DNA of 64,000 nucleotides from Candidatus Latescibacterota bacterium. Its GTDB lineage: Bacteria > Latescibacterota > UBA2968 > GCA-2709665. The notes beneath the pieces were generated by a model. It saw only the letters and a program-made list of their open reading frames with translations, did not search any database and was not told the DNA's origin. This document shows positions 23,429 through 64,000 of the stretch, one piece after another. The stretch is from the NCBI GenBank assembly GCA_965205485.1, contig OZ242180.1, positions 1,152,001 to 1,216,000 of the forward strand, in the 5' to 3' direction. A program made the position numbers and the translations under genes. The stretch's first letter is position 1. Each line of letters begins with the position of its first letter.

Positions 23429-24562
23429 ATGATGCGAGTCGTTCGATTCACCATCTTTCTGTGCGCGTGCCTTTGGGGTGTTTCAGTTCCGGCCGCCGAC
23501 GTGGTCGTGGAGATGCACCAGGAGGAAGAGGTGACGGAGTTGAGGTACCGGGTCGGCGTGATAGACGCGGTGTCAGAGTCAGTCGACTGGGGTGAGGTGG
23601 GAGCGCACGACGACGGCCGGTTTCCGTCCGTTGCCGTGGACGGCGGAATTGTCGTGGAGGTACACCAGTCCCACCAGGGAACGAACCTGTGGTACAAAGT
23701 CGGCAAGGTCGACGCGGCGACAAAGACGGTCCGGTGGGGCGCGGGGAGAAAATTCGACGGTGGCCAGTACCCGATGGTGGCGCTGGACGGCCGTGCGGTG
23801 GTGGAAGTACACCAGTCGCATGCCGGCACGAACCTGTGGTATCACGTGGGCATCGTGGATACCGCGGCCGATTCGATTGCCTGGGGCGCTTCGGAGAAGT
23901 TCGATGGAGGGCGGTTCCCGTCGGTGGCGCTGTCTGACGGGGTGGTCGTGGAAGTCCATCAGTCGGAAGAAGGCGAACGTCTATGGTACAATGTGGGTAC
24001 CGTGGATACAACGTCGAAGTCAATTGCGTGGGGTGAAGCGCAGGAATACGACGGCGGCCAGACGCCCTCCGTGGATATGGACGACGGCATGGTCATTGAG
24101 ATGCATGAGTCGATAGGCGGAGGCGACCTCTGGTATCGGGTGGGCGTTCTGGACGCGGAGCGCAGGACTGTCGATTGGGGGGAGGCGAGGAAGTTCGACC
24201 GCGGTATCGCTCCCAACGTGGCGGTGGACAACGGAGTCGTCATGGAGGTGCATGAATCCCACAGCGCTTCGGACCTCTGGTACCACGTCGGATCGGTGGA
24301 TGCGGACGCGAAGTCGGTGTCCTGGGGGACGGGCTGGAACTACGGTGAGGGCATACTCCCCGCCTTGAGCGTCAGCATCCGGCGAGGGCCCGCGGATTTC
24401 GACGGCAGCGGCCAGGTGGACTTTGCCGATTTTCTGTTGTTCGTAAAGGCCTTTGGTTCCGAGGCCGGGGACGTGGATTTCGAAACCCGATTTGACCTGG
24501 ACGGAGACGGCCGCATCGGATTCAACGATTTTATCCGATTCGCCCGGGAATTCGGCACATAG
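23429..24562 (+). CDS. Secreted six-repeat beta-propeller-like protein with a C-terminal EF-hand/dockerin-like domain
   Basis: Signal peptide, six ~49-aa repeats (VVEVHQS...LWY.VG.VD...WG...DGG..P.VA), then ADFDGSGQVDFADFL...FDLDGDGRIGFNDF. Confidence 0.8.
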   Translation: MMRVVRFTIFLCACLWGVSVPAADVVVEMHQEEEVTELRYRVGVIDAVSESVDWGEVGAHDDGRFPSVAVDGGIVVEVHQSHQGTNLWYKVGKVDAATKTVRWGAGRKFDGGQYPMVALDGRAVVEVHQSHAGTNLWYHVGIVDTAADSIAWGASEKFDGGRFPSVALSDGVVVEVHQSEEGERLWYNVGTVDTTSKSIAWGEAQEYDGGQTPSVDMDDGMVIEMHESIGGGDLWYRVGVLDAERRTVDWGEARKFDRGIAPNVAVDNGVVMEVHESHSASDLWYHVGSVDADAKSVSWGTGWNYGEGILPALSVSIRRGPADFDGSGQVDFADFLLFVKAFGSEAGDVDFETRFDLDGDGRIGFNDFIRFAREFGT

Positions 24563-50323: not shown

Positions 50324-50866
50324 ATGAACAGGCTGTCGGTTTTCGGTCTCGTAGTCATTGCGGGAATTGCGATATCGTGTGGTGACGACAAACCAACGGC
50401 GCCGGGTCAGGACCTGGTTGGATCATGGACGTACCAGGGAACCGATTTCAGTTCGACCGCGGCGACCAACCTGCAGGAATACCTGCTGAGTCAGGGGGTG
50501 GACGCAGCGGCCGCGCAGCAGTTCGTCACAGAATTCAGGAACGAGATGGATAGAGGCTTCCGCGAGACCGGCCTGGAAATCGTGCGATTCAATGAGGACC
50601 GGACCTACGAAGATAATTCAGGCAACTCGGGCGTCTGGTCGGTCCTGGGCGACGTACTCACGATGGTGGAGGAAGACGGGTTTACCATTCAGTGCCAGTA
50701 CTTTATAGACGGCGAAGACCTGACGCTCATCCTGACCAAGGAGCGGTACCTGAATATAATCAGGCAGACGGAAGATGCAGTTGAGCTCGACACGGATTCG
50801 CTGGCGCTTCTGGATATCCTTTTTGGAGACGGCGACTCCCTGAGGCTCTTCTACAGGGCCAGATGA
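50324..50866 (+). CDS. Lipoprotein, lipocalin-like (paralog 1)
   Basis: Lipobox AISC and LVGSW motif; strong similarity to the next gene. Confidence 0.8.
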   Translation: MNRLSVFGLVVIAGIAISCGDDKPTAPGQDLVGSWTYQGTDFSSTAATNLQEYLLSQGVDAAAAQQFVTEFRNEMDRGFRETGLEIVRFNEDRTYEDNSGNSGVWSVLGDVLTMVEEDGFTIQCQYFIDGEDLTLILTKERYLNIIRQTEDAVELDTDSLALLDILFGDGDSLRLFYRAR

Positions 50867-50940
50867 CCCGCGGGAAGACGCTCGCGCCTCACTGATGGAT
50901 GCGCGAAGCTCAGGTGGCGACAAAGTCGGAGGGCGTCCTG

Positions 50941-51483
50941 ATGAGCCGGATGTCGGTTTTCGGCCTGACGGTGTTGATCGGTCTTGCGATATCCTGCGGC
51001 GATGACAAACCCACGGAGCCGGTTCGCGACCTCGTTGGATCGTGGACCTACCGGGGTACCGATTTCGCCTCGACCGCGGCGGCCAACTTGCGCGATTACC
51101 TGCTGGGGCAGGGCTGGAACCTCGCGTCCGCGCAGCGGATGGTGGATGGATTCCGGAACGAGATGGAAGCAGGGTTCCGGCATACCGGGTTGTCGGTCCT
51201 GCGGTTCAACGCGGACGGGACCTTCGAAGACAATTCCGGCAGCAAGGGCGTCTGGTCGGTTCAGGGCGACGTGCTTGCGATCGTCGCCGAGGATGGCTAT
51301 ACCATCCAATGCCAGTACTCTGTGGACGGCACCGACCTGACGCTCATCGTGAACAAGGAGCGATACCTGAACCTGATCCGGCAGTCCGAAGGTACGGACG
51401 AGATTAGCCCGGAGATTCAGGGGCTTCTGGATATTCTGTTCGGTGGCGACAATACGCTCAGGCTGTTCTACAGGGCCGCATAG
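50941..51483 (+). CDS. Lipoprotein, lipocalin-like (paralog 2)
   Basis: MSRMSVFGL...AISCGDDKPT; tandem duplicate of 50324-50866. Confidence 0.8.
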   Translation: MSRMSVFGLTVLIGLAISCGDDKPTEPVRDLVGSWTYRGTDFASTAAANLRDYLLGQGWNLASAQRMVDGFRNEMEAGFRHTGLSVLRFNADGTFEDNSGSKGVWSVQGDVLAIVAEDGYTIQCQYSVDGTDLTLIVNKERYLNLIRQSEGTDEISPEIQGLLDILFGGDNTLRLFYRAA

Positions 51484-51606
51484 CGGGTCGAATGAACCCA
51501 GGGAGGGGGTCCGCGAGGGGGTTGAGAATTGCCCAAGTTGCGGTCCCGAATCCCTTCGCGGTAAATTTGCCAAACCCCACAGGCAGTCGGTTGTCGCGTT
51601 CAACGA

Positions 51607-54600
51607 TCAGTTCGACTTTTTGCCGAAAGCGCCTGCAAAGATGAGAAAATCACTGAACCCGATCGTGCCGTTTCCATCGAGGTCGAATCGCGCGTCATAC
51701 CCCTCGTCTCGCTGACTCGTCCCGAATTGCGCCGCAAATTGCAGAAAGTCGGCAAAACCCACGGTCCCGTCGCCGTCGAAGTCCGGATTGCGGATGGTAG
51801 GCGGGAGGTACCGCGCGATATCCCACAGCAACATCGTGCCGTCTCGGCTGCCACTGATCAGGGTCCTTCCATCCGGCGAAAACGCAACGGAATGAACCTC
51901 ACTCGAATGTCCGTCCAAGGTGGCGATCTGGTTCCGGGTTTCCACGTCCCACAACTGGACCGAACCCCTTGACCCCGAAACGAGGGTTTCCCCATCAGGT
52001 GAGAACGCCACCGAATAGACAGAACCCGGATTGTGCATCGTACCGATAAGGGACCGGGTCCCCACTTCCCACAGCTTGATCGTGTGGTCCTCTGCCCCGG
52101 AGGCAAGAGTTGAGCCGTCCGGCGAAAACGACACCGCACGCACAGCGGACCCGTGTCCGGCCAGCGTGGCAATCTCTGTTCTCGAGGCCACGTCCCACAA
52201 CCGCGCCGTATTGTCACGACTGCCGCTGGCCAGCGTGCTCCCATTGGGCGAAAACGACAGGGACATCACATCATCGGTGTGTCCTTCCAGCATGCCGACC
52301 ACGGCCCGCGTGGCAACGTCCCACAACCTGATCGTTCGATCCTTGCCCCCACCACCCCCCGTCGCCAACAGCGCACCGCCCGGTGAGAACGCCACCGATG
52401 GAATCATACCAGGATGTTTCTTAAGCGTGGCAATCTCCCTTCCCGTCTCGAGATCCCACAGATGGAGCCGGTAAAGCGACCCGGCAGCCAGGATGCCGCC
52501 GTCAGGCGAAATCGCCACCGATTGCAATACATGTGGTGTGGCCAAGCTGGCATCCCACGAGAGCGTGGCGATCCTCGACTGTGTTGGCGTGTTCCACAGG
52601 TCGACCTGGCTGTTTGCCAATGCCGTGGCGAGGATGTTGCCGTCGTCAGAGAGCGCCATCGAGTTGATTTGCACATGCCCGTAGAGCGTGACGGAACTTT
52701 CCGTCTCCAGATCCCGCAGCAATATGCCTTGTGACGAGGCGGAGGCGAGAGTGACACCGTCCGGAGAAACCGCCATCGACGTGACGCCCCCTCTCACATG
52801 CTCATTTCCTCCTATCGAGCCAATCCGATTCCCCGTTGCCACATCCCAGAGGAGAATCGTACCTCTACTACCCGGGCTCAACCCGGTAAACAGAACGGAC
52901 CCATCTGAGGAAAACACAACTGACTCGGCATACCTTACACCAGGGGGGTCCAGCGTGGCGACCTGCGTTTGCGCCGTGACATCCCACAGAATCACCGTGC
53001 CATCTCCGTAGGCGCCTGCGGACGCAAGGCGGTCTCCCTTGGGCGAATACGCCACCGATGTAACTGCTCTTTTGTGTCCTTCAAGGGTAGCGACCTCGGC
53101 TTGCGTGGCCATGTCCCACAGCCGTACCGTGCCATCATCAAACCCGGATACCAACCGCGAGCCATCCGGAGAAAAGGAAATCGACCCGCGCCGACCGTTT
53201 CCCTCCCGCACCACCTCCCACGTGGCAAGCTGGACCCTTGTGGCTACGTCCCAAACGCGGATGACCTGATCCCACGAGCCGGAAGCCAGTCTCGAGCCGT
53301 CCGGAGAGAAGACCACCGTGACCTCGCCCCGATCCGCGTGCCACAGCGTGCCGATCCGTTCGCCAGTTTCCACCTCCCTCAGCTCAACCCGGCCGTTGTC
53401 GAGTCCCGCCGCCAGCGTGCCGCCGGGGGAGAACGACACCGAATGGACCGCACTCCCCGTCGGCAACAGGGCCTGCGCCCGGGACGTGGTCGCCCCGTAC
53501 AGCCACACGCCGACGGACGTGGCAACCGCCAGCGTACGTCCATCCGGAGATAGCGCTACCGCACGGTCAGTAATACCCATGGTTCCTTTGCCCAGGCGCG
53601 CGGCGGCGCCATATGGCAGATGCCACGCCGTGTAGTCTCCCTCCAGGGAGGCGACCCCGGTCTCCACGCCTTCGGATCGAAAAGTCGCAACTTCCACGCT
53701 GCCGACGAATACCCCCACGGCGTATGTACCCGGACGCGGACCCAGGGTAAGTGTCAACTCCGCGTGGCCGTTGGCATCGCTGATCGCCTGCTGAGACGTG
53801 TACCGGCCGCTGAGCCTGCCATCGCCACCCGTAACCGTGAACGTCACCGACGCATTGGAAAGAGGATTGCCGTGCTGATCCTTGACCAGTACAACGAGTG
53901 GCTGTGCAAGTACCGATCCTGGCGCGCCTCGTTGCCCGTCGCCGGAGACGATCTCCAGCGCATAGGGACGGGGACGCGTCCACCGGGACGTGTTCCACAG
54001 GTTGACGGTGTTGTCCCGCGAGCCCGCGGCCAGGGTGGCGCCATCAGAGGAAAAGACCGCATCCAACACGGAACTCGTTTGCCCGGTCAGCGTTGCGATC
54101 CGCTCCCGGGCTCTCACGTCCCAAAGATAAACCGCTGAATTACCCGCAGCGCCGGCCAGAATCGCACCGCCGGGAGAAAACGCAACCGACTGCCACCCAT
54201 CGCATTGATAATCGAGGTTGGCAATTCGAACCCGTGAGGCCACGTCCCACAGCATGATCGTGCTACCCCTGGAGCCGGCAGCCAGCATCGTACCGTCAGG
54301 CGAAAATGCGACCGACGTCATCCCGCGGGTATCGCCTTCAAGCATCACAACCTCTATGCGCGAGGCCGCGTCCCACAAACGCACCGTTCCATCCCGGGAC
54401 GCAGAGGCCAGCGTGTTCCCATCCGACGAAAACGCCACGGATCTGACGGAAGCCGTATGTCCTGTGAGGGTGTGTTTTTCCTGAATTGTGGCCACGTTCC
54501 ACAGCTTGAGTGTGCCGTCGTCCGATCCGGAAGCCAGGGTGGCGCCGTCAGGTGAGAACGCCACCGAGTTCACAGCACCCGCGTGTCCTTCCAGTGTGGC

Positions 54601-55962
54601 GACCCCGGTACGCGCGGCCAAATTCCACAGCTTGAGTGTGCCGCGGTTCGATCCGGAAGCCAGGGTGGCGCCGTCAGGTGAGAACGCCACTGAGTTCACA
54701 GCACCCGCATGTCCTTCCAGTGTGGCGACCCCGGTACGCGTGGCCACGTTCCACAGCTTGAGCGTGCCGTCGTCCGATCCGGAAGCCAGGATTGCACCGT
54801 CAGGTGAGAACGCCACTGAGTTGGCTCCGCGCGTATGCCCTTCAAGTGTGGCGATCTGTTCAGGGGAATCCCTCACAAGCTGGAACCGGTGGTTTGCTGT
54901 GTTTCCCCGGGTATCAACAGCAGTGATCGTCAAAGGTTGGGTGGGGTCCTCATGGAGACTATTGTCTTTGCGAGCATAGGTGCTGCCGCTGAAGTCGAAT
55001 TCTACAATGGCATTTTCTTCACCCTTAACGCCGACACAAGCGTATAAGTCCCACGAAGTATAAAGTAGGGACACTTGATGGACCCCGTCTGAATCCCCGA
55101 TTTCAACACTGATAGGGACTTTGGTAGATCCAGGAGGATACTTCAGCGGCGTTGTAACTGTGATGGTGGGTGGGGACGCCTGTTCAATCGGGATGTCGGC
55201 ATTGAAATAGGGATGCACAGCGAGGAATTCAGCGTGACAGGCAGAAAGCCGAGTCTGTCCCGGTCCCTGGGACATGACGTAATCAAAATTGCTGTTATCG
55301 TGCAGGAGACCGAACGCGTGTCCAATTTCGTGTCCAAAGAGAGCTACGTGGGAGCTCCGGAATTCGCCGGTTATGTACACGGCCCCGCCGGCTTTCCCGA
55401 CCCGTCGTGCCCTCCCTATCGACCACGGCTCTTCGTGCGGGCTAGCGCCAATCTTCCCCGAACTGTTATCGATTACGATGACATACACATTCGTTGCCAG
55501 GTCGAATGTTGGTGCAAGCTCTCCATCCACAAGCGATAACGTATTCCTGTAATAATGGCTATCGGGGTGTTGCCCATCCACCCGATGCACCAGCGGCTGG
55601 CCGTCGGAATCGGATTCGACCCGGAAGGTCCTGGCGCCGTAGCCGTGCGCCTCCATCTGCTCGGCATAGAAGGTCTGCACCCGCTTGATCTCCGTCTTCA
55701 TCGAATCGACCACCTCCTGTCGGTAGGTGCGGTCGTTGGGCAGGAAGTAGGCCATCCGCACAGTTCGCGGTTCGCCCACGTTAAGGTCGTCCGCACGCTT
55801 TGCCGCCGGAAGAGGGTGATCGCGCCACCACTGTTCGTGGTCGTCGAAGGCGGAGATATGCACGCTGTCAGGAAGGATCGACGACGCACCCACGGCGCCG
55901 GGCATCGAAACTACGAGAGCGAGCGACACATATTGGGCGAAATGACGAACAAGCGTTTTCAT
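51607..55962 (-). CDS. Secreted metzincin protease + WD40 propellers + Ig-like domain + C-terminal EF-hand/dockerin-like domain
   Basis: Signal peptide, HEIGHAFGLLH...YVMS, about 20 GH...SVAFSPDG...WD repeats, Big-1-like IVSGDGQRG...VKDQHGNP, PDFDGDGTVGFADFL. Confidence 0.9.
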   Translation of the reverse strand: MKTLVRHFAQYVSLALVVSMPGAVGASSILPDSVHISAFDDHEQWWRDHPLPAAKRADDLNVGEPRTVRMAYFLPNDRTYRQEVVDSMKTEIKRVQTFYAEQMEAHGYGARTFRVESDSDGQPLVHRVDGQHPDSHYYRNTLSLVDGELAPTFDLATNVYVIVIDNSSGKIGASPHEEPWSIGRARRVGKAGGAVYITGEFRSSHVALFGHEIGHAFGLLHDNSNFDYVMSQGPGQTRLSACHAEFLAVHPYFNADIPIEQASPPTITVTTPLKYPPGSTKVPISVEIGDSDGVHQVSLLYTSWDLYACVGVKGEENAIVEFDFSGSTYARKDNSLHEDPTQPLTITAVDTRGNTANHRFQLVRDSPEQIATLEGHTRGANSVAFSPDGAILASGSDDGTLKLWNVATRTGVATLEGHAGAVNSVAFSPDGATLASGSNRGTLKLWNLAARTGVATLEGHAGAVNSVAFSPDGATLASGSDDGTLKLWNVATIQEKHTLTGHTASVRSVAFSSDGNTLASASRDGTVRLWDAASRIEVVMLEGDTRGMTSVAFSPDGTMLAAGSRGSTIMLWDVASRVRIANLDYQCDGWQSVAFSPGGAILAGAAGNSAVYLWDVRARERIATLTGQTSSVLDAVFSSDGATLAAGSRDNTVNLWNTSRWTRPRPYALEIVSGDGQRGAPGSVLAQPLVVLVKDQHGNPLSNASVTFTVTGGDGRLSGRYTSQQAISDANGHAELTLTLGPRPGTYAVGVFVGSVEVATFRSEGVETGVASLEGDYTAWHLPYGAAARLGKGTMGITDRAVALSPDGRTLAVATSVGVWLYGATTSRAQALLPTGSAVHSVSFSPGGTLAAGLDNGRVELREVETGERIGTLWHADRGEVTVVFSPDGSRLASGSWDQVIRVWDVATRVQLATWEVVREGNGRRGSISFSPDGSRLVSGFDDGTVRLWDMATQAEVATLEGHKRAVTSVAYSPKGDRLASAGAYGDGTVILWDVTAQTQVATLDPPGVRYAESVVFSSDGSVLFTGLSPGSRGTILLWDVATGNRIGSIGGNEHVRGGVTSMAVSPDGVTLASASSQGILLRDLETESSVTLYGHVQINSMALSDDGNILATALANSQVDLWNTPTQSRIATLSWDASLATPHVLQSVAISPDGGILAAGSLYRLHLWDLETGREIATLKKHPGMIPSVAFSPGGALLATGGGGGKDRTIRLWDVATRAVVGMLEGHTDDVMSLSFSPNGSTLASGSRDNTARLWDVASRTEIATLAGHGSAVRAVSFSPDGSTLASGAEDHTIKLWEVGTRSLIGTMHNPGSVYSVAFSPDGETLVSGSRGSVQLWDVETRNQIATLDGHSSEVHSVAFSPDGRTLISGSRDGTMLLWDIARYLPPTIRNPDFDGDGTVGFADFLQFAAQFGTSQRDEGYDARFDLDGNGTIGFSDFLIFAGAFGKKSN

Positions 55963-56477
55963 GGTGTTTTCATCCTTTCAGAAATCGGTCATCCCGGCGT
56001 CGTGGCACGTGAATGCCAGCAGCGCAAGCGCGGCAAAACGTATAGCGACCTTCGATATCGTCACTATGCGAACCCTCCTGTTCGTAACTGCCGAACACGT
56101 CCTCCGACCCATCAAACCTGCTTGACGTACCGTCTGTCTGAAGTATTCCGTTTTATGAATCTGGACCTCTGCGTATTGAGGGGTCGAATCCGGCTTATCC
56201 GACGCAGAATCTCGACGAATCAGGGTTCTATCGTGCCGACGACTTGTCCTTTTGGGTCAACAACGCAAAGAGGTTCCCGGATGAACCCGGCGCCGCTGGT
56301 CAACTCATGCTCAGCGCTGGCGGGCGTACCCTCGATCCCGGTATGGCGGTTATTCCCGACGCCAATTGTCGCGCCCCGGTCCCAAATGTCCTCGGCGTCA
56401 TATTGTGGCACGGTTTTTTTTCATCATGGTGATGTCAGTTGGCGCTTATGACATTGCCCTCGATGGACGAATCACGG

Positions 56478-56885
56478 CTAATTCGACGTCGAACCTGAGC
56501 ACCGCTGGGACCGTTCCACCACACTCGCGAGCGTCACTCCGCCGGAACTGACGGCCACCTGGAAATCCCGTCCCGACTCGCACGTGCTCCTAAGGTCGCT
56601 GCTGAGATCGAGCTGTGCACAAGCGGCTCTGTACGCCGCGTTCAGGGCTTCCTGCTGGGTGGCGCCAGAGCCGGTACCCCGTCCGGTGCCAGACGGTGAA
56701 CTGAGGCTTCCCAATCTTGAGGGAACCAATGTCAGCGTCACTTCGCATTGAAATGAACTCAATCCAGTACCGTTGTCCTTTCCGCAGGCAAAGGCGAAGA
56801 ACAGGGCGAACACGCTGATCCCAAACAAAGCCTGAAACCCTGACGTTGACCCAATGCGCCCCATCTGACTTGTAAGACGATTCAT
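56478..56885 (-). CDS. Small Cys-containing lipoprotein
   Basis: FAFAC lipobox after a hydrophobic stretch; four further Cys. Confidence 0.6.
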   Translation of the reverse strand: MNRLTSQMGRIGSTSGFQALFGISVFALFFAFACGKDNGTGLSSFQCEVTLTLVPSRLGSLSSPSGTGRGTGSGATQQEALNAAYRAACAQLDLSSDLRSTCESGRDFQVAVSSGGVTLASVVERSQRCSGSTSN

Positions 56886-56923
56886 CCTGGACTCCTTGAT
56901 TTGGACCGGCGTGATACCTGATA

Positions 56924-57157
56924 TCATCGACGTGCTTCGGATCTAAGGGCATTCACGTCTACAAATATGAATACATCCGCGAATTCCGCCGTGCCGTTGC
57001 CATCGAGGTCGATCTTCGCATCGGTACCGCGGTACGCATCGGCAAAGAGGAAGATTTCCACGGAATCCGTCCTGCCGTCACCGTCGAAGTCTGAGGCTGC
57101 AGCTGTGTTTGGAGAGGGTGTGGTCCTTGCGGGCATTTTTTTTGAAATCACGTCCAA
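56924..57157 (-). pseudogene. Degenerate orphan EF-hand/dockerin-like fragment
   Basis: SDFDGDGRTDSVEIFLFADAY...KIDLDGNGTAEFADVFIF; no signal peptide or upstream domain. Confidence 0.7.
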
Positions 57158-57217
57158 CCGATCCGTGATCGTCCTAGTCGTCCTGTCGGACTAGATTCCG
57201 CGACCGGTTCTCCGTTG

Positions 57218-58009
57218 TCAAAACAGACAACCGCCAATTGTAAGGGCGCGAAAACCGTCCTTGCTATACATTTGATCTTCCGTGTAATTCAGACGGTAAC
57301 GTCTTTTCTCAGACGGTTTTAGAACGCTCTTCCGGCCTTCGAATTCTATCTGGCATTCGTCGCTGGTATCATTGTCCAATTCAATGCTGAATCGGCCAAG
57401 CAACGGTAGCAGAGCGTCTCCGTCTTTCATGGTAATCCGGGCGCTGCTGAATTCGTGGACCTCGTTCGCGAGGTTACGATGTATTTCTCTGTTTACGTAC
57501 ATTCTCAATATCATCGAGTCATCGCTCGTTTCGGCCGAGAATGAGAACAGTTCCAGATGTGGGATTACAAGAGTAACCGGCACCACGGCGCTAACCATCA
57601 TAACGCCGTATGAACCCACTCCCGAACCAGCTGACATCTGGTGTTTGGATATGAACTCATCCTTTCTCAACGTATATTCTTTCGTCTTATTGCCGTTTTC
57701 ATCGGTGATGGTTCGGCTTGTCAATGTTCCGCAATACTTCACTTCCGGCCTGTTGAAATATCTCCGCAAGACAGGGTTTAACTGATCTATGCTTTCCTGG
57801 CAGTTCTTTGCTTTCGAACTGCTTGGAACCAGGAACTCCGCCGGCAACAATATTCCGTCCTCGGATCGCCACACGGCTTTCAGACTCGTGATACGAATGA
57901 AGAAGTCCGCGTCGATACTTACACAGGCCGAAAACAACAACAGCACCAGGACACCAACGAAATCCGTTGCCCGCCGGCCGCTTTTGGCGATATCCAGGTT
58001 TGCCATCAT
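57218..58009 (-). CDS. Hypothetical exported protein (possible lipoprotein)
   Basis: 263-aa ORF with a VLVLLLFSAC segment; lower GC than the genome average. Confidence 0.6.
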   Translation of the reverse strand: MMANLDIAKSGRRATDFVGVLVLLLFSACVSIDADFFIRITSLKAVWRSEDGILLPAEFLVPSSSKAKNCQESIDQLNPVLRRYFNRPEVKYCGTLTSRTITDENGNKTKEYTLRKDEFISKHQMSAGSGVGSYGVMMVSAVVPVTLVIPHLELFSFSAETSDDSMILRMYVNREIHRNLANEVHEFSSARITMKDGDALLPLLGRFSIELDNDTSDECQIEFEGRKSVLKPSEKRRYRLNYTEDQMYSKDGFRALTIGGCLF

Positions 58010-58080
58010 GCCCTCCAGGTATAACGGTTTAATGTACCTTCCAGTTATTCCATCTGTACGATGGTCATGATCCCATGCGA

Positions 58081-59283
58081 TCAGGGCAGGCTGACAATCG
58101 TCCAGACGTTGCCGCTTCGGGTCAGATGCAGCCTGTTCAGTCGGACAGTGCCGCCGCTGAACCGCGTATTGCCCAACCGTATCCCTCCGATATTGCCGTC
58201 CACAACCAAAACGCTCGCGTCGTTACGAAGCGTGTATCCTGAACCCTGACATCCTTCTCCCGGTCTCATCGTCAACCCAACCGTGCACGTCTGGCTGGCG
58301 CCACCGCCACCGCCGGATCCCGTCACGGTCACATCGATCGTCCGTTCGGCACTCAAGCTGCCGGGGTCGGTCGCCGTGACGGTCACCGTCGCGTCCCCGG
58401 CCGACCTCGGCGTTATCTCCAATGTCGAATCCGTAACACTCACTGCCGCCACCGAGGTATCACTGGAAACCGCCGAATAAGTCAACGCGTCGCCGTCAGG
58501 ATCGCTGAAACCGTGAGACAGGTCCACCGATGCGGCCGCGCCGCCTGCTGCCAGGGTCTGTGCGGGGATGTCGGCGGCGGCCACAGGCGCTCCGTTCTCT
58601 CGCTCAACGATCTGAAACTCGCCACGCAGGGTCAGTGGCGCGGAACCCGCCTCGGTATAGGTGCTGACGAACGTGCCCGACGTCGTCGATGTGAACGTCA
58701 GTTGGATCACGACCTTCTCCCTTTCAGGGTCGTTTCCCGTCACATCGTAGGTGTACGTAACCGTCCCGGTATTCGGGCCGGTATTGACGTAACGGTAACT
58801 GCCCTCGTGGGCGACGCCATCCTCGATTTCCCGTATTCGTCCCGGGGACAGGAAGATCAGCCTGAGGCCGGTGGCGGGCGTAACCTGCCTGCCAACCGCG
58901 AAACGGTCGAAGGCATTCCGGTCCGCCGGCGCAAAGCCGGAAGGCGTCGATTCGACCGTCTTGCCAAAATCGGCGGCAAACGCGACAAAGTCCGGGAACC
59001 CGATAGCGCCATCGCCATCCAGGTCGAACCGGGCATCGAACCCTGCGTCGCCCTGTTGGGACCCGAACACGCTCGCGAATGCCAGGAAATCGGAGAATCC
59101 AACAGTCCCGTCACCGTCGAAGTCGGGAGACGGGACGCCAACGTCTCTCTGGTTACCCGCCCCCGCATCGACAATCAGATCAAGTGACAACACGGCGTTT
59201 GCATTCGAACCGGCGATCGCGTAGTCCAACGTTATCAGCACACCCAGGACGGCGATCCACTTTATGCCATTTCTCGTAAACAT
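58081..59283 (-). CDS. Secreted protein: dockerin-like + unknown + cadherin/Ig-like + C-terminal Cys module
   Basis: Start MFTRNGIKW with AGGAGG RBS; PDFDGDGTVGFSDFL; FSDPDGDALTY...VTATDPGSLSA; CTVGLTMRPGEGC...WTI. Confidence 0.82.
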   Translation of the reverse strand: MFTRNGIKWIAVLGVLITLDYAIAGSNANAVLSLDLIVDAGAGNQRDVGVPSPDFDGDGTVGFSDFLAFASVFGSQQGDAGFDARFDLDGDGAIGFPDFVAFAADFGKTVESTPSGFAPADRNAFDRFAVGRQVTPATGLRLIFLSPGRIREIEDGVAHEGSYRYVNTGPNTGTVTYTYDVTGNDPEREKVVIQLTFTSTTSGTFVSTYTEAGSAPLTLRGEFQIVERENGAPVAAADIPAQTLAAGGAAASVDLSHGFSDPDGDALTYSAVSSDTSVAAVSVTDSTLEITPRSAGDATVTVTATDPGSLSAERTIDVTVTGSGGGGGASQTCTVGLTMRPGEGCQGSGYTLRNDASVLVVDGNIGGIRLGNTRFSGGTVRLNRLHLTRSGNVWTIVSLP

Positions 59284-59466
59284 TGACGTATCCTCCTGTT
59301 GTTTAAGGACACCGGCGCCTTGCCACTGTCGCATCGTGCTGAAGTTTCGATTGAATGTGCAGCCATACCTGATACCTGATGGGCCATGCATTACTCACGG
59401 GGATCCGGGTCGCGGCGACTTCCGGGTCAGAGTATGGTCGGGCGAATAACAGGACTACATATAAAG

Positions 59467-59481
59467 GCAATATGTGTGCCA
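59467..59481 (-). promoter_or_regulatory. Sigma-54 (-24/-12) promoter
   Basis: Minus strand TGGCAC-ACATA-TTGC, an exact consensus match. Confidence 0.75.
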
Positions 59482-59508
59482 ATGTGTTTCCATGGCATTG
59501 AATGACTG

Positions 59509-59521
59509 TAAGACATTGATT
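59509..59521 (-). promoter_or_regulatory. IHF binding site
   Basis: Minus strand AATCAATGTCTTA matches WATCAANNNNTTR and lies between the sigma-54 site and the UAS palindromes. Confidence 0.6.
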
Positions 59522-59580
59522 TTATGTGGGATAAAAGTGTGGCAAGGTACAACAATAAAAAGGCCAGGCCGAATTGCAGG

Positions 59581-59668
59581 GACGATATATCGACCGACAA
59601 TTCAGCCTGGCTCGCTTATATTATTGAAAAACAGTTAGATACAACAGGGTCGATATATCGACCCTGTT
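59581..59668. promoter_or_regulatory. Two palindromic upstream activator (bEBP) sites
   Basis: GACGATATATCGAC at 59581 and the perfect 26-bp palindrome AACAGGGTCGATATATCGACCCTGTT at 59643-59668. Confidence 0.55.
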
Positions 59669-59766
59669 CCGGAATTTGGCCCCCTACGGTTGGGTAACGG
59701 ACTCCGTCATCCCTGCCGGCGACACAGGCCCCGTGGCCTGATCAGCCGGCAACACAGTTTTATACA

Positions 59767-59976
59767 GTGGAACGATGGGTAGAGGATGGGTTTACGATTC
59801 AGTGCCAGTACTCTGTGGACGGCGCGGACCTGACGCTCATCTTAGACAAGGAGCGATACCTCAACCTGATCCGGCAGTCCGAGGGTTCGGACGAGATTGA
59901 GCCGGAGATACAGGCGCTTCTGGATATTCTGTTCGGTGGCGACAATACGCTCAGGCTTTTCTACAGCGCTACATAG
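59767..59976 (+). pseudogene. Orphan 3' third of the lipocalin-like lipoprotein (third copy)
   Basis: EDGFTIQCQYSVDGADLTLILDKERYLNLIRQSEG...RLFY, nearly identical to the end of 50941-51483; 5' part absent. Confidence 0.85.
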
Positions 59977-60017
59977 TGGGTTGAATCCCTGCGCACGTCT
60001 CCCTTCCGAACCCCCCC

Positions 60018-60910
60018 TCAGTTCGCCGGAATGGTGTAATAAGGCGATGCATTGGGATCACGTGCCGTACTTCCTCCGATGACCAGTTCGAGTCCCGCAG
60101 CATGTTCGCGTGCCACGACGTTCGCGCATCTCGGTGTCCCGGGGTTTAGGGGTCATCGGGCCTCGAGGTAAGCGTACCTCGCTTCATTTCGTCGAGCGCG
60201 ACCCAGTCGCCGTCGAGCCACGCCCTTGGACGGCGGATGGCTGCGCTTCGAACCTGCCGGGCAAGACAGTGCCGTGCTCTCACTACAAAATCCTCCACGA
60301 ACATCCCGAAGCGCTTCATCTGTGCACGCCTGGCGAAGCGTAAAGTGCCCACGAAGCGCCTGCTTTCCGTCGCGAGATCGGTTACGTGCAGGGTGATCGC
60401 ACTGCCCCCGTTCATCTCCACCTCAGTAACTTCGAAGCGATATGTCGACTCTACGGTCCATCGATAGTCCAACCTGCACTTTACCCCCGTTCCTTCACCT
60501 CCGAAAGGCCCGCACACGACGTCGCTCGCCTTGTCGATGAGCTTCGCATCGCCAAATCCCGGAGCGTCCCAGACCGAGAGTTGAAGCTGTCGATCGAAAC
60601 GGTCTCCTCCCCGCTGCAGTCCCGTGTATCCTCCGTCCCACTGGATTGCTGCGTAAAAGGTACCCGTCGGTTCGGTCAGCGGCGTCATGTCGATCGAGTA
60701 ACCCGCGCTGGGGTGACTCCGGTTGTGGATCCAGATGGTGGCATCTCCTGCGGGAGGATTGGCGGGTGTCGTGGACAGCGTCGCCAGTTCTTTCGTTACG
60801 CGGGAGTTTTCGTCTTCCACGGTGATCGATAGTGTGCCCGCTCCCGGCCAGCCCGCCTCCCAGGTCGTCTGGAAACGCCCAAGGCTGCTTATGCACTTCC
60901 AGGAAACCAT
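60018..60910 (-). pseudogene. DUF3472-like protein, 5'-truncated and frameshifted near 60150
   Basis: TFYAAIQWDGGYTGLQ...LSVWD, FGGEGTG and FVEDF motifs. Adding one C at GACCCC(C)TAAAC extends the frame to TGA at 60018. Confidence 0.6.
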
Positions 60911-61167
60911 CGTCCGCGAGCTCCTTCATTGTCTCCGCAGGACGTTTCAGACCGATCCAATTACACCAAATAGGAAAACCGTACGTATCCAGCCGGCTTC
61001 ACGACAACAGGGGCCGGCTGGCCAGAGCCTGTGCCTGAACTATCGCAATTTTCGACAGTTGGCCGCGCTGTGTTGCCGCAATCCGCGACTTCAAAGAAGC
61101 ACTTTGCGACGCGATTGCGCGCACGGTTCCGGATTTCCCGTGCGTCTCGGCAACGGTTCTTCGAGAA

Positions 61168-61340
61168 TCAAGGCACAGCAGTGATTCGAAAATCATCACC
61201 GACACGGGTGCCCTGGAGTCCGTTCAGGTTGAAACTCGCGCTGCAAATCCTTCCCGATCCGAACGGCGTATAGTTGTAACAGCCGCCGCCGATACTTCTG
61301 AACGACCCTCCGCTGACGGTACAGCTCTGGTTGGGACGCG
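61168..61340 (-). pseudogene. Orphan alternative C-terminal Cys module
   Basis: RPNQSCTVSGGSF...FNLNGLQGTRVGDDFRITAVP* aligns by eye with the C-terminus of the 58081 protein. Confidence 0.55.
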
Positions 61341-61373
61341 AAGCTGGTGGACGCCGTCTGACGACCTCAGTCA

Positions 61374-63434
61374 TTAATCCGCTACGTGAATTGTCCAACT
61401 GTTGCTGCCACTGTTTTTCGTGGCGTGAAAGTTCCACCGTACGCCGTTTATGTTGGCGCCTCTGGCGTCTATACCGGTACCGGCGCTGAAGAACGCGATA
61501 GATCCCCTTCCGGAACTGGATACAGAGAAGGTATTGCCCTTGTAAGTGCAGGTTTCGCCAGGATTCACGACCAACCCGGCCCTGCAAGCGCCCAGGTTGG
61601 ACGTGCCGCCGTCGAATTCTACGGTAACGCCTCGGCGCTGAAGAGTTGGAATGTGCGTGTTGCGCGATGCATTGCTCAAGGGATTACTCTTCAGATTTAC
61701 TGTATCACCGGTACCCAGGCCCGTGTTTGCCACCAATGGCGAAACATCCGAGATGTCGTTGTCTTCCAGTCCCAGGATTTCCAGGTTGGTCAAGGTGGAC
61801 AACGCGGATATGCGAGAGATATCGTTCTGGTTAAGGTACAGGTATTTAATGCTGGTCAAGTTGGACAGTGCGGAGATGTCTGAAATGCTGTTGTTCCAAA
61901 GAACCAGATTCACGAGGTCGGTCAAGTTGGACAGTGCAGCAACATTCGAGATGCTGTTGTGTTCAAGACCCAGCCGTGTCAGTTTGGTCAAGTTGGACAA
62001 GGCGGATATATCAGAGATACTGTTGTAATCCAGAAACAGCCATGTCAGGTTGGTCAAGGTGGATAGCCCGGATAGATTCGTGATGCTGTTTTCGAAAAGA
62101 TCCAGATAGAAGAGTCCGGTCAAGTCGGATAACGCGGAAATATCCGAGATCCCATTCTGGCTGAGTCCCAGCCGCGCCAGGTTGGTCAGGGTGGATAGCC
62201 CGGATAGATTCGTGATGCTGTTCTCGTTAAGGAACAGGTCTGTCAAGCCGGTCAAGCCGGAGAGGTCGGATATATCCGAGATGCTGTTTCTGTAGAGATC
62301 CAGATATGCCAGGTTTGCCAAGCCGGAGACGGGCGAGAGGTCGGATATATCGTTGCTGTTGACCCACTTCCCCCCTTCTTCCGCCCGCACTCGACCAAGG
62401 TTCAGGCCCCGCAAACTGGTGGCATGTTCGAGACCCGCAAGGTTACGAATCCCCATATTGGGCGCGTCAATACGTCTCAAGGTCGCCACCTCGGCACGGG
62501 TAATCGGCGCATTGGGCGCTTTGCCCAGGCTATCCGCGATCACCGCACGCAGGTTGTCATCGGGAATGGTCACCGTCTCTCCGTCGCCGGAAGATGTCCC
62601 CCCGCCGCCGGAGGGCGGAACCTGACTTCCGAACGCGCCGGCGAAGATCAGAAAATCCGAAAAAGCAACGGATCCGTCGCCGTCCAGATCGAACCTCGCC
62701 TCATACCGCGCGCCGCCCCGGTTGGACCCGAAACTGCCGGCAAATGCCAGGAAATCCGGAAACCCCACAGTCCCATCGCCGTCGAAGTCGGGCGACGGCG
62801 CGGTGTTGAACGAGATCTCAATGCTCGTCCTGAGTACGTCGCTGGACGTTGAACTCTCGGCGAGTGTGACAGACGCGATGCCGATGGAAAACGCCCTTCC
62901 CGTTACGTCTGCAACCGTCTCGAACTCCGCGCGCGCCAGGAATCCCGAAGATGCCAGTGTCGCGGGCGAAGTGGAGGCGAGGGCTGCGCCGACGGATCCC
63001 TCGGGCAGCGAAAGGGCAAACGCGCTGTTTTCGGCTTTGACGAAAGACACGAGAGAGGCATCGAAGTCGAATCTGAGGATGACGCCGCGCAGAGTGGTCG
63101 TGACCCCCGTGGCGAAGACTTCAAGGGCGATGGTCGTGCCGCGTCCCGACACGTTGCCCGTCGTCACCCCGTCGTCCCTCCGGTTGCCCGCCCCGCCGTC
63201 AGCGATCAGGTCAAGCGACAAAACCGCATTCACATTGTTACCCAGGGCGATTTTCGCGGCGCGTTCCGACATCGTACGTTCGACGGCGTCTGCATCCCCG
63301 GCGGTAGCCAACTCACCGCCTTCAATCAGGTCAAGAGTCAAGATCCCGTCTTCGCTGGACACGACGAGAGCTGCACCTGTTATCACGGAGAAGCCGACAA
63401 CCGCAATCGACAACAGGCGAAATACAGGATTCAT
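61374..63434 (-). CDS. Secreted internalin-like LRR protein with cohesin-like, dockerin-like and C-terminal Cys modules
   Basis: Signal peptide, beta-sandwich LRGVILRFDFDASLVSF, PDFDGDGTVGFPDFL, IPDDNLRAVI LRR cap, ~11 22-aa LRRs, CRAGLVVNPGETC...WTI. Confidence 0.88.
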   Translation of the reverse strand: MNPVFRLLSIAVVGFSVITGAALVVSSEDGILTLDLIEGGELATAGDADAVERTMSERAAKIALGNNVNAVLSLDLIADGGAGNRRDDGVTTGNVSGRGTTIALEVFATGVTTTLRGVILRFDFDASLVSFVKAENSAFALSLPEGSVGAALASTSPATLASSGFLARAEFETVADVTGRAFSIGIASVTLAESSTSSDVLRTSIEISFNTAPSPDFDGDGTVGFPDFLAFAGSFGSNRGGARYEARFDLDGDGSVAFSDFLIFAGAFGSQVPPSGGGGTSSGDGETVTIPDDNLRAVIADSLGKAPNAPITRAEVATLRRIDAPNMGIRNLAGLEHATSLRGLNLGRVRAEEGGKWVNSNDISDLSPVSGLANLAYLDLYRNSISDISDLSGLTGLTDLFLNENSITNLSGLSTLTNLARLGLSQNGISDISALSDLTGLFYLDLFENSITNLSGLSTLTNLTWLFLDYNSISDISALSNLTKLTRLGLEHNSISNVAALSNLTDLVNLVLWNNSISDISALSNLTSIKYLYLNQNDISRISALSTLTNLEILGLEDNDISDVSPLVANTGLGTGDTVNLKSNPLSNASRNTHIPTLQRRGVTVEFDGGTSNLGACRAGLVVNPGETCTYKGNTFSVSSSGRGSIAFFSAGTGIDARGANINGVRWNFHATKNSGSNSWTIHVAD

Positions 63435-63657
63435 TGCAAGTCCTCCCTTGTATCCGTTTGGATAATTGGCCTGTGGCGCGGTCAGCCGTCAAAACAGGCC
63501 CTTACTGCACGCCAAAAAATACTGCCGATGCCCGTCCCAGTCGAGACGTTCTTGCGTAACCGCCAGACATCGGGATTCGTCGCGGAACCACCCATCTTCA
63601 GGTTCTGCACGGAAGATTCGCCAACGACCACCGGCATTACGTCGTCAGGTTCAACGA

Positions 63658-64000
63658 TCAGTTCAAGCTCTTGCCGAAGTCGGCGGCAAAGATCAAAAAA
63701 TCGCTGAACCCGATGGTACCGTTGCCGTCCAGATCGAAGCGTGCTTCGTATTCCGCATCGCCCTTTTTCGATCCGAACTTCCCGGCGAACTGCACGAAAT
63801 CCCCGAAGCCTACGGTCCCGTCACCGTCGAAGTCAGGGTTGGCGACAGACGGTGCGATGTACCTGAAAACATCCCACAGCAGCACGGTACCATCCGATGC
63901 GCCCGAGGCCAGGACGTGGCCGTCACCTGAAAACGCCACAGAATGGACATGCCCATTGTGCCCTTTCAGATTGGCTATCTGTTCATGTGTCGCCATGTCC
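63658..64000 (-). CDS. 3' end of a WD40 protein with a C-terminal dockerin-like domain (truncated by the window edge)
   Basis: GHNGHVHSVAFSGDG...LWD then NPDFDGDGTVGFGDF...FDLDGNGTIGFSDFLIFAADFGK. Confidence 0.88.
   Translation of the reverse strand, partial: DMATHEQIANLKGHNGHVHSVAFSGDGHVLASGASDGTVLLWDVFRYIAPSVANPDFDGDGTVGFGDFVQFAGKFGSKKGDAEYEARFDLDGNGTIGFSDFLIFAADFGKSLN

Follow-up and report, generated by a model that had tools for sequence, protein, structure and literature searches.

We analyzed a 64,000-nt window of DNA (positions 1,152,001–1,216,000 of a genome that is 97% complete in a single contig of 5.13 Mb) from a Candidatus Latescibacterota bacterium, in which several genes for proteins with signal-peptide-like starts carry the same duplicated EF-hand module of ~55 residues, hereafter called the tag. 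We interpret the tag as a dockerin-like module and propose that the genome encodes a working, non-cellulolytic cohesin–dockerin system for surface display, tethered by proteins that combine a second cohesin type (s2) with a type IX secretion system (T9SS) signal; we assign this interpretation a probability of about 0.55. The tag system as such is real and extends across the order.

A dockerin-like tag occurs in 94 frames of the genome

A tag profile built from the genome's own copies was searched over 72,893 stop-to-stop frames and matched 94 of them, and the same frames reversed gave no match; this provides the genome-wide count of tagged genes that an initial annotation, made from the window's sequence alone, had proposed as a check. 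That annotation had counted six copies in the window, of which five are intact two-loop tags and the sixth is degenerate and joined to no cargo. The tag consists of two canonical Ca2+ loops with a Phe-rich helix after each, and shows the duplicated 12-residue Ca2+ loop (D1, D/N3, D/N5, D12) plus helix by which we defined a dockerin. We modeled one tag together with the beta-sandwich that precedes it (described below) and compared the model with 48,161 PDB chains; model residues 145–204, which comprise the tag, matched the dockerin of NagH (2ozn_B) with a Z of 7.6 and an rmsd of 1.7 Å over 53 residues. The tag is predicted from this model to have a dockerin fold, as the initial annotation had supposed.

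By a crude rule, 83 of the 94 tagged frames have a signal-peptide-like start; applied to 500 random long frames, the rule is positive for 25%. The tag is C-terminal in 54 frames, N-terminal in 27 (a few short fragments included), and internal in 13. Because 40 of the 94 copies are not C-terminal, a plain C-terminal sorting signal is unlikely, and we rejected this explanation. Two paralogs elsewhere in the genome (G000:C1 757992–758957 and 2919064–2920197) end in a half tag with a single loop.

WD40 and leucine-rich repeat (LRR) proteins dominate the tagged cargo. The tag was found on 22 of 27 WD40-like frames, 16 of 19 LRR frames (the three untagged ones overlap tagged frames), all five YWTD frames, and 11 of 12 metzincin frames, and none of the frames in these groups has a T9SS signal. 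A Pfam scan (E 1e-7) took in 40 tagged proteins out of the 94, selected to represent the non-WD40 clusters, and returned LRR (6), heparinase II/III (2), subtilase (2), FGE-like (2), and one GH5, along with matrixin, NHL, cadherin, fibronectin III, Ig, and cache matches; it returned no carbohydrate-binding module (CBM), and 13 of the 40 had no family at this threshold. A canonical cellulosome was rejected on the grounds of one GH5 and no CBM among these proteins, and the suggestion that the cargo is non-cellulolytic held for most of them. One tagged fibronectin III protein (G000:C1 433809–437885) also has a PPDK_N-like domain, which is odd for an exported protein.

A predicted cohesin fold precedes the tag in the window's LRR protein

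The 686-aa LRR protein encoded at 61374..63434 (minus strand, as are its parts) begins with a signal-peptide-like start and continues with a nine-stranded beta-sandwich (type S, 62799..63236), a long-class tag directly after it (62628..62798; 20.4 bits, below the Dockerin_1 cut-off), LRRs (61614–62573), and a Cys-containing C-terminal domain (61377–61586). The initial annotation had placed a cohesin-like sandwich of ~110 aa at 62810–63150; its likeness to cohesins was borne out by the predicted fold, and its extent had to be revised to the 146 aa given above. The sandwich-plus-tag model, made from an 81-row alignment, had a pLDDT of 94, a pTM of 0.82, and nine strands, and single-sequence folding of the whole LRR protein left residues 1–283 without a model. 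For the sandwich, the top five of the PDB chains compared were all cohesins, with Z from 11.8 to 9.9 (2vo8, Z 11.8, rmsd 2.8 over 123 aligned residues; 2w1n, Z 11.5; 5aoz, Z 10.2), and the best Foldseek match was the CipA cohesin-X-dockerin chain 3kcp. The initial annotation had named a sandwich that does not fold as a cohesin as one part of its grounds for refutation, and a predicted fold closest to cohesins (Z 11.8) speaks against that outcome.

We then have the evidence of profiles. An S profile, built iteratively with the tags masked, matched only cohesins in the PDB (five of five, each weakly, E 0.12–0.26), and 23 of its 30 Atlas matches were clusters in which a minority carry Pfam Cohesin, which we treat as a lead. 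On the model and these matches, S is predicted to have a cohesin fold. Profile–profile comparison gave E 0.0013 between the window S and a second S subtype and E 0.09 and 0.008 between S and s2; because these similarities are weak, a common origin of the cohesin-like types rests on the cohesin matches that they share.

The genome contains 10 S domains of two subtypes, with at most two in any frame, and S precedes the tag in 8 of the 94 tagged frames. Among the best 120 of 326 homologs, the tag follows S directly in 118; among 133 further representatives (from the best 150 of 667) it does so in 109, and 20 have no tag. Relatives also encode tandem arrays of two to seven S closed by a single tag, including P0121 with seven S, and P0159 and P0253 with the order S-S-S-tag-s2-T9SS signal. 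The most scaffoldin-like protein seen was a single 1835-aa frame with nine tandem S matches (G021:C1 586549–590379). An S array with one tag fits the layout of an adaptor or primary scaffoldin, yet it is also compatible with a stalk.

A second cohesin type carries the T9SS signal

Searching the genome with Pfam Cohesin revealed the second type, s2, outside the window (eight matches, two over the cut-off). The s2 type scores over the cut-off in two of its seven frames, and each of the seven has a T9SS type A signal at its end. Two of them are tag-s2-signal fusions, and the other five encode stand-alone proteins of 270–370 aa. The s2 carriers have a signal peptide and a C-terminal TIGR04183 domain (30.4 bits, cut-off 23). 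These cohesin-plus-signal genes, all of which lie beyond the window (one s2 domain occupies 2671493–2671918 of the genome), were missed by the initial annotation. Four of the five stand-alone s2 genes are 0–214 bp from a tagged frame, compared with 0.65% of random 900-bp windows within 300 bp of one, and one s2 gene stands ~3 kb after a PorU-like gene at the head of a run of tagged genes. The stand-alone form is kept among 109 homologs (20 of the 20 top loci, in 20 genomes), and in 20 larger stretches, whose choice was biased toward s2 or dense tags, the s2 genes mostly abut S-tag genes. Judged from its sequence features, the s2 protein with its T9SS signal is likely the anchor of the display system. 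Complex prediction of an s2 cohesin with a window long tag, run without controls, scored 0.05 and 0.02 against a mark of 0.32, a result that weighs on neither side of the question whether they bind.

The genome has several parts of a T9SS: SprA, nine PorV, and one C25 (PorU sortase-like) protein were matched over cut-off, so that the SprA translocon, the PorV shuttle, and the PorU sortase of the T9SS are all represented. The nine PorV paralogs, all over a curated cut-off, stand against a single SprA. A T9SS signal was found in 25 frames, two of them tagged, and accordingly 2 of the 94 tagged proteins carry a C-terminal TIGR04183. Among 61 genomes of the class, which are kin and not independent, every one had both tags and SprA. 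Tag counts ran from 24 to at least 105 in each of 28 other genomes of the order, from 50 to 67 in family f4, and from 1 to 31 in family f3, with a query that favors close kin. A secretin was not found in the present 97%-complete contig, in four of four other genomes of the family, or in 18 of 18 genomes of genus g4, with 45 to at least 105 tags per genome, and was found in 26 of the 61 class genomes overall. GldM and GldN had no match in seven family genomes, but none in control genomes either.

Two main tag classes suggest a two-tier arrangement

Tags could be assigned to classes in 76 of the 94 frames, with 18 unparsed. The long class (loop spacing 31–33) accounts for 52 of the 76, a short acidic class with F14 and D18 in both repeats for 11, and other short tags for 13. 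All 11 short acidic tags, together with the degenerate tag of the window, are found 10 kb or less from a window-type S gene and make up ~3 loci. In three relatives, 8 of 8 full strict short acidic copies are within 15 kb of an S gene, and 9 of 10 nonstrict short tags are more than 170 kb from one. The tags directly after S belong mostly to the long class; among the homologs listed, 220 of 229 are long, 8 are unparsed, and none has a spacing of 27. With two main tag classes, a two-tier scaffold of anchor, adaptor, and cargo is favored over self-polymerization.

In such a scaffold, cargo would enter the periplasm by Sec and its tag would fold on Ca2+, while the s2-signal protein would leave through the T9SS and be attached to the surface by the PorU-like sortase. 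Long tags would bind s2, and proteins with S plus a long tag, for which the window's LRR protein is a putative example, would serve as adaptors whose S domain takes short-class cargo. We advance this wiring (long tag to s2, short tag to S) tentatively, at somewhat below even odds. In the least certain step, the cargo would cross the outer membrane bound to the s2 carrier, which is the simplest route for proteins that lack an outer-membrane signal of their own. Piggyback export of this kind, with a few s2-signal carriers taking ~90 signal-less tagged proteins through the SprA pore, is possible and rather doubtful. Cargo genes would be gained and lost in blocks.

Alternative explanations

Several observations weigh against the display system that we propose or against parts of it. 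The window sandwich has no Pfam match (PF00963 included) up to E 10, so the "cohesin" label rests on the fold search and weak profile matches, and the lead of cohesins over pilin and Ig-like sandwiches is only ~2 Z (best noncohesin, 9.8). Most tags fall under the cut-off of Pfam Dockerin_1 (PF00404), with 24 of the 94 over it, and the best PDB sequence matches of the tag are calmodulin-type EF-hands; the profile checks suggested by the initial annotation thus gave one of the five intact window tags over the Dockerin_1 cut-off and no Pfam match for the sandwich. Among the matches in G055 (6 S) and G057 (12 S) there is no strict short acidic tag, and G021 has only two such tags to 43 S, so that S is not class-specific everywhere. 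Short acidic tags occupy only ~3 loci here, two of which also contain an s2 gene, which makes S and s2 inseparable as their partners, and a strict pairing is strained further by the presence of an s2 gene in most short-tag loci. Of 20 s2 loci in relatives, only 6 have a tag 1.5 kb or less from s2 (5% expected by chance). As to export, ~13 tags per s2 gene and cargo of up to 1600 aa strain the carrier model, the genome has eight TolC-type genes, and vesicle release may be another exit route.

The alternative that survives best makes S a structural stalk or stabilizing module, like the X module of X-dockerin dyads, that binds no tag in trans and leaves s2 as the sole socket of a single tier; we regard it as a possibility on the unlikely side. 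The nearly constant place of S directly before the tag (118 of 120 and 109 of 133 homologs) would suit a stalk, as would the ~3-residue linker, which with the pTM of 0.82 suggests a fairly fixed orientation of S to tag, and tandem arrays of up to 7–9 S could be spacers. In G021, G055, and G057, moreover, there are far more S domains than short acidic tags. However, S is nearer to cohesins than to other sandwiches, most tags do without it (the 58081 gene of the window has lost its S), and short acidic tags are found near S genes only.

A second concern was that the cohesin–dockerin assembly might be real but periplasmic, or released in outer-membrane vesicles, with no part played by the T9SS. 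Cargo without a recognized outer-membrane signal is consistent with this, and some cargo (cache domains, FGE-like, thioredoxin-like starts) suits a periplasmic role, whereas all seven s2 frames carry the T9SS type A signal, and heparinase-like lyases, cadherin, fibronectin III, and LRR proteins would make more sense outside the cell. We consider this explanation unlikely.

Less likely again is that the tag serves to bind Ca2+ or to self-associate, or is recognized directly by a PorV-like shuttle, and that the cohesin-like domains have some other job. The calmodulin-type EF-hands that lead the sequence search point this way, as do the nine PorV paralogs, one of them 569 bp from a tagged cluster, and specialized shuttles for other T9SS signals are known (PMC12618676). 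Against this, known T9SS signals are C-terminal, which 40 of the 94 tags are not, the tag model matches a dockerin at 1.7 Å, and s2 genes are tightly linked to tagged genes.

Finally, head-to-tail polymerization of the S-plus-tag protein through S binding to long tags, with the polymer carrying cargo, had been suggested by the initial annotation and would accord with S and tag sharing one chain, with long tags as the majority class (at least 52 of 94), and with S in genomes without strict short acidic tags, but we find it improbable, since the S loci are accompanied by a tag class of their own, set apart by fixed differences at helix positions 14 (F) and 18 (D), and nearly all tags after S are long. 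In addition, genes for a second, dedicated cohesin that bears a T9SS signal adjoin S-tag genes, and the dockerin of characterized adaptor scaffoldins is not known to bind the cohesins of its own protein.

Tagged genes of the window and their turnover

The display system that we favor, with tagged cargo tethered by s2-signal proteins, would be represented in the window by the LRR protein and the following genes. Fusion of the tag to unrelated cargo, described by the initial annotation, was confirmed for metzincin with WD40 (and Big_1), Ig (Big_9), LRR, and WD40, and its "beta-propeller" found no match. The gene in question (23429..24562, plus strand) encodes a signal-peptide-like start, ~49-aa tandem repeats, and a C-terminal long-class tag (24392–24559, plus strand; Dockerin_1 24.4 bits, cut-off 22.9); with no propeller match in Pfam or the PDB for these repeats, the propeller is an inference.

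The remaining tagged genes are on the minus strand. The 1451-aa protein at 51607..55962 has a signal-peptide-like start, a metzincin motif (HEIGHAFGLLH, 55300–55332), WD40 blocks (53986–54858 and 51811–53625), a Big_1 domain (53656–53970), and a C-terminal long-class tag (51610–51789); a T9SS signal was not found in it. The degenerate tag, a relic of the short acidic class (56927..57094), occupies a frame of 88 codons that has neither a cargo domain nor a signal peptide, and it does not belong to the 149-aa ORF starting at 56927; its closest counterparts are tags of the short acidic class at other places in the genome (49–67% identity). The 400-aa protein at 58081..59283 combines a signal-peptide-like start, an S remnant of which only the first ~24 residues are left (59134–59205), a long-class tag (58963–59133), a Big_9 Ig domain (58318–58596), and a Cys-containing C-terminal domain (58084–58287). 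At the window's edge, 63658..64000 holds the 3' end of a WD40 cargo gene, a 1569-codon frame that extends beyond the window, with a C-terminal long-class tag at 63661–63840.

The Cys-containing domain, ~70 aa and beta-rich, terminates two tagged proteins (58081 and 61374), and an apparent spare copy is found past the stop of the LRR gene (61171–61380, minus strand). It had no Pfam or NCBIfam family, and its Atlas matches were weak; the same few C-termini recur in many homologs. Other neighbors are a DUF3472 gene fragment (60146–60910, minus strand), for which contigs of two other runs have a one-base length change at the end, so that the window copy looks truncated, and untagged lipoprotein-like tandem paralogs (50324–50866 and 50899–51483, plus strand) with weak lipocalin-like matches, which we do not count as part of the system. 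Beyond the window (G000:C1 1225268–1233555; L011:9268–17555), a frame of 2446 codons, which encodes fibronectin III, cadherin, LRR, and leishmanolysin-like (M8) domains, overlaps an S-tag frame; a frame change has probably divided what was a single giant gene.

A 205-nt direct repeat with 88% identity (51289..51493 and 59782..59986, the right copy being a partial copy of the lipoprotein-like gene at 50899) bounds a block of ~8.4 kb that contains two tagged genes and the relic tag. A sponge-metagenome contig joins across this block, which is absent there, indicating that cargo is swapped in blocks. In a search of public-run contigs, the same contig spans 59983–63221 with 223 letters different; a close relative thus inhabits a sponge, and the present organism is likely a sponge symbiont. 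Because contigs of public runs X1 and X4 contain both the degenerate tag and the shortened sandwich of the 58081 gene, at 0–3 differences from the window, we rejected an assembly artefact, although run X1 may be the source sample of the genome. Named homologs of the window's proteins were labelled Gemmatimonadota or Ca. Latescibacteria bacterium; membership of the genome in Latescibacterota is likely.

Discussion

Early Latescibacteria genome papers reportedly mention cellulosome-type domains. Literature searches, judged for most papers from the search listings, turned up no description of this system in Latescibacterota and none of cohesin-mediated piggybacking on the T9SS; the main text of a study of sponge Latescibacterota (PMC12993501) has no occurrence of "cohesin," "cellulosom," or "type IX."

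Noncellulolytic scaffolds are known as predictions, and T9SS-signal s2 carriers with repeat-protein cargo are a variant of them. Multi-tier cellulosomes (Acetivibrio cellulolyticus ScaB/ScaC and Ruminococcus flavefaciens ScaB/ScaE) likewise have proteins with n cohesins and then one dockerin, a separate single-cohesin anchor, and orthogonal dockerin classes, but use SLH or sortase anchoring on a monoderm wall and carry cellulase and CBM cargo, where 1 of 40 scanned proteins here is a GH5. The best structural matches of our domains, the NagJ and NanJ cohesins and the NagH dockerin of Clostridium perfringens (2vo8, 2w1n, and 2ozn), are also noncellulosomal; they belong to Gram-positive glycoside hydrolase complexes with no T9SS and have 10–23% sequence identity to the window domains.

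A close likeness in layout is the "Planctosome" of freshwater Planctomycetes (Nemodlikiaceae; PMC6461901), whose predicted noncellulolytic tiers of anchor (cohesin), adaptor (dockerin plus cohesin), and tagged M12B-like peptidase rest, as here, on prediction. In passages of that paper, the anchor is a lamin-tail-domain protein and not a T9SS substrate, the components are few, and no WD40 or LRR expansion is described, unlike here. Ca. Stygibacter (Cloacimonadota), in the part of PMC8542988 concerned with it, has enzymes that combine a signal peptide with a C-terminal dockerin, and its cohesin scaffoldin bears a T9SS-type C-terminal domain, like s2; its one scaffoldin, however, is a 3,755-aa protein with CBMs, for starch, chitin, and protein, whereas the carriers here are small and have one cohesin each, cohesins and tags come in two classes apiece, and the cargo consists mostly of repeat proteins. 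A noncellulolytic scaffold is also predicted in Chlorobium (10.64898/2026.03.19.712371). In Poribacteria, WD40 proteins with TIGR04183 tie the eukaryote-like repeats of a sponge symbiont to the T9SS signal, which in the relevant passage of PMC3909097 sits on the repeat protein itself, in contrast to the absence of a T9SS signal from all WD40 and LRR frames here.

According to Robbins et al. (2021; PMC8163846), eukaryote-like repeat proteins are numerous in sponge Latescibacterota, secretion systems are encoded in few lineages, and the route of the proteins to the host is largely unknown. Most such proteins of the present genome share one 55-residue tag, and a candidate carrier has ~270 aa, which narrows the export question to whether two proteins bind and whether a reporter is exported. 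If the proposal is true, it would provide new orthogonal cohesin–dockerin pairs for synthetic scaffolds, widen what the T9SS is capable of, and supply the missing route for eukaryote-like repeat proteins across an order of sponge-type symbionts.

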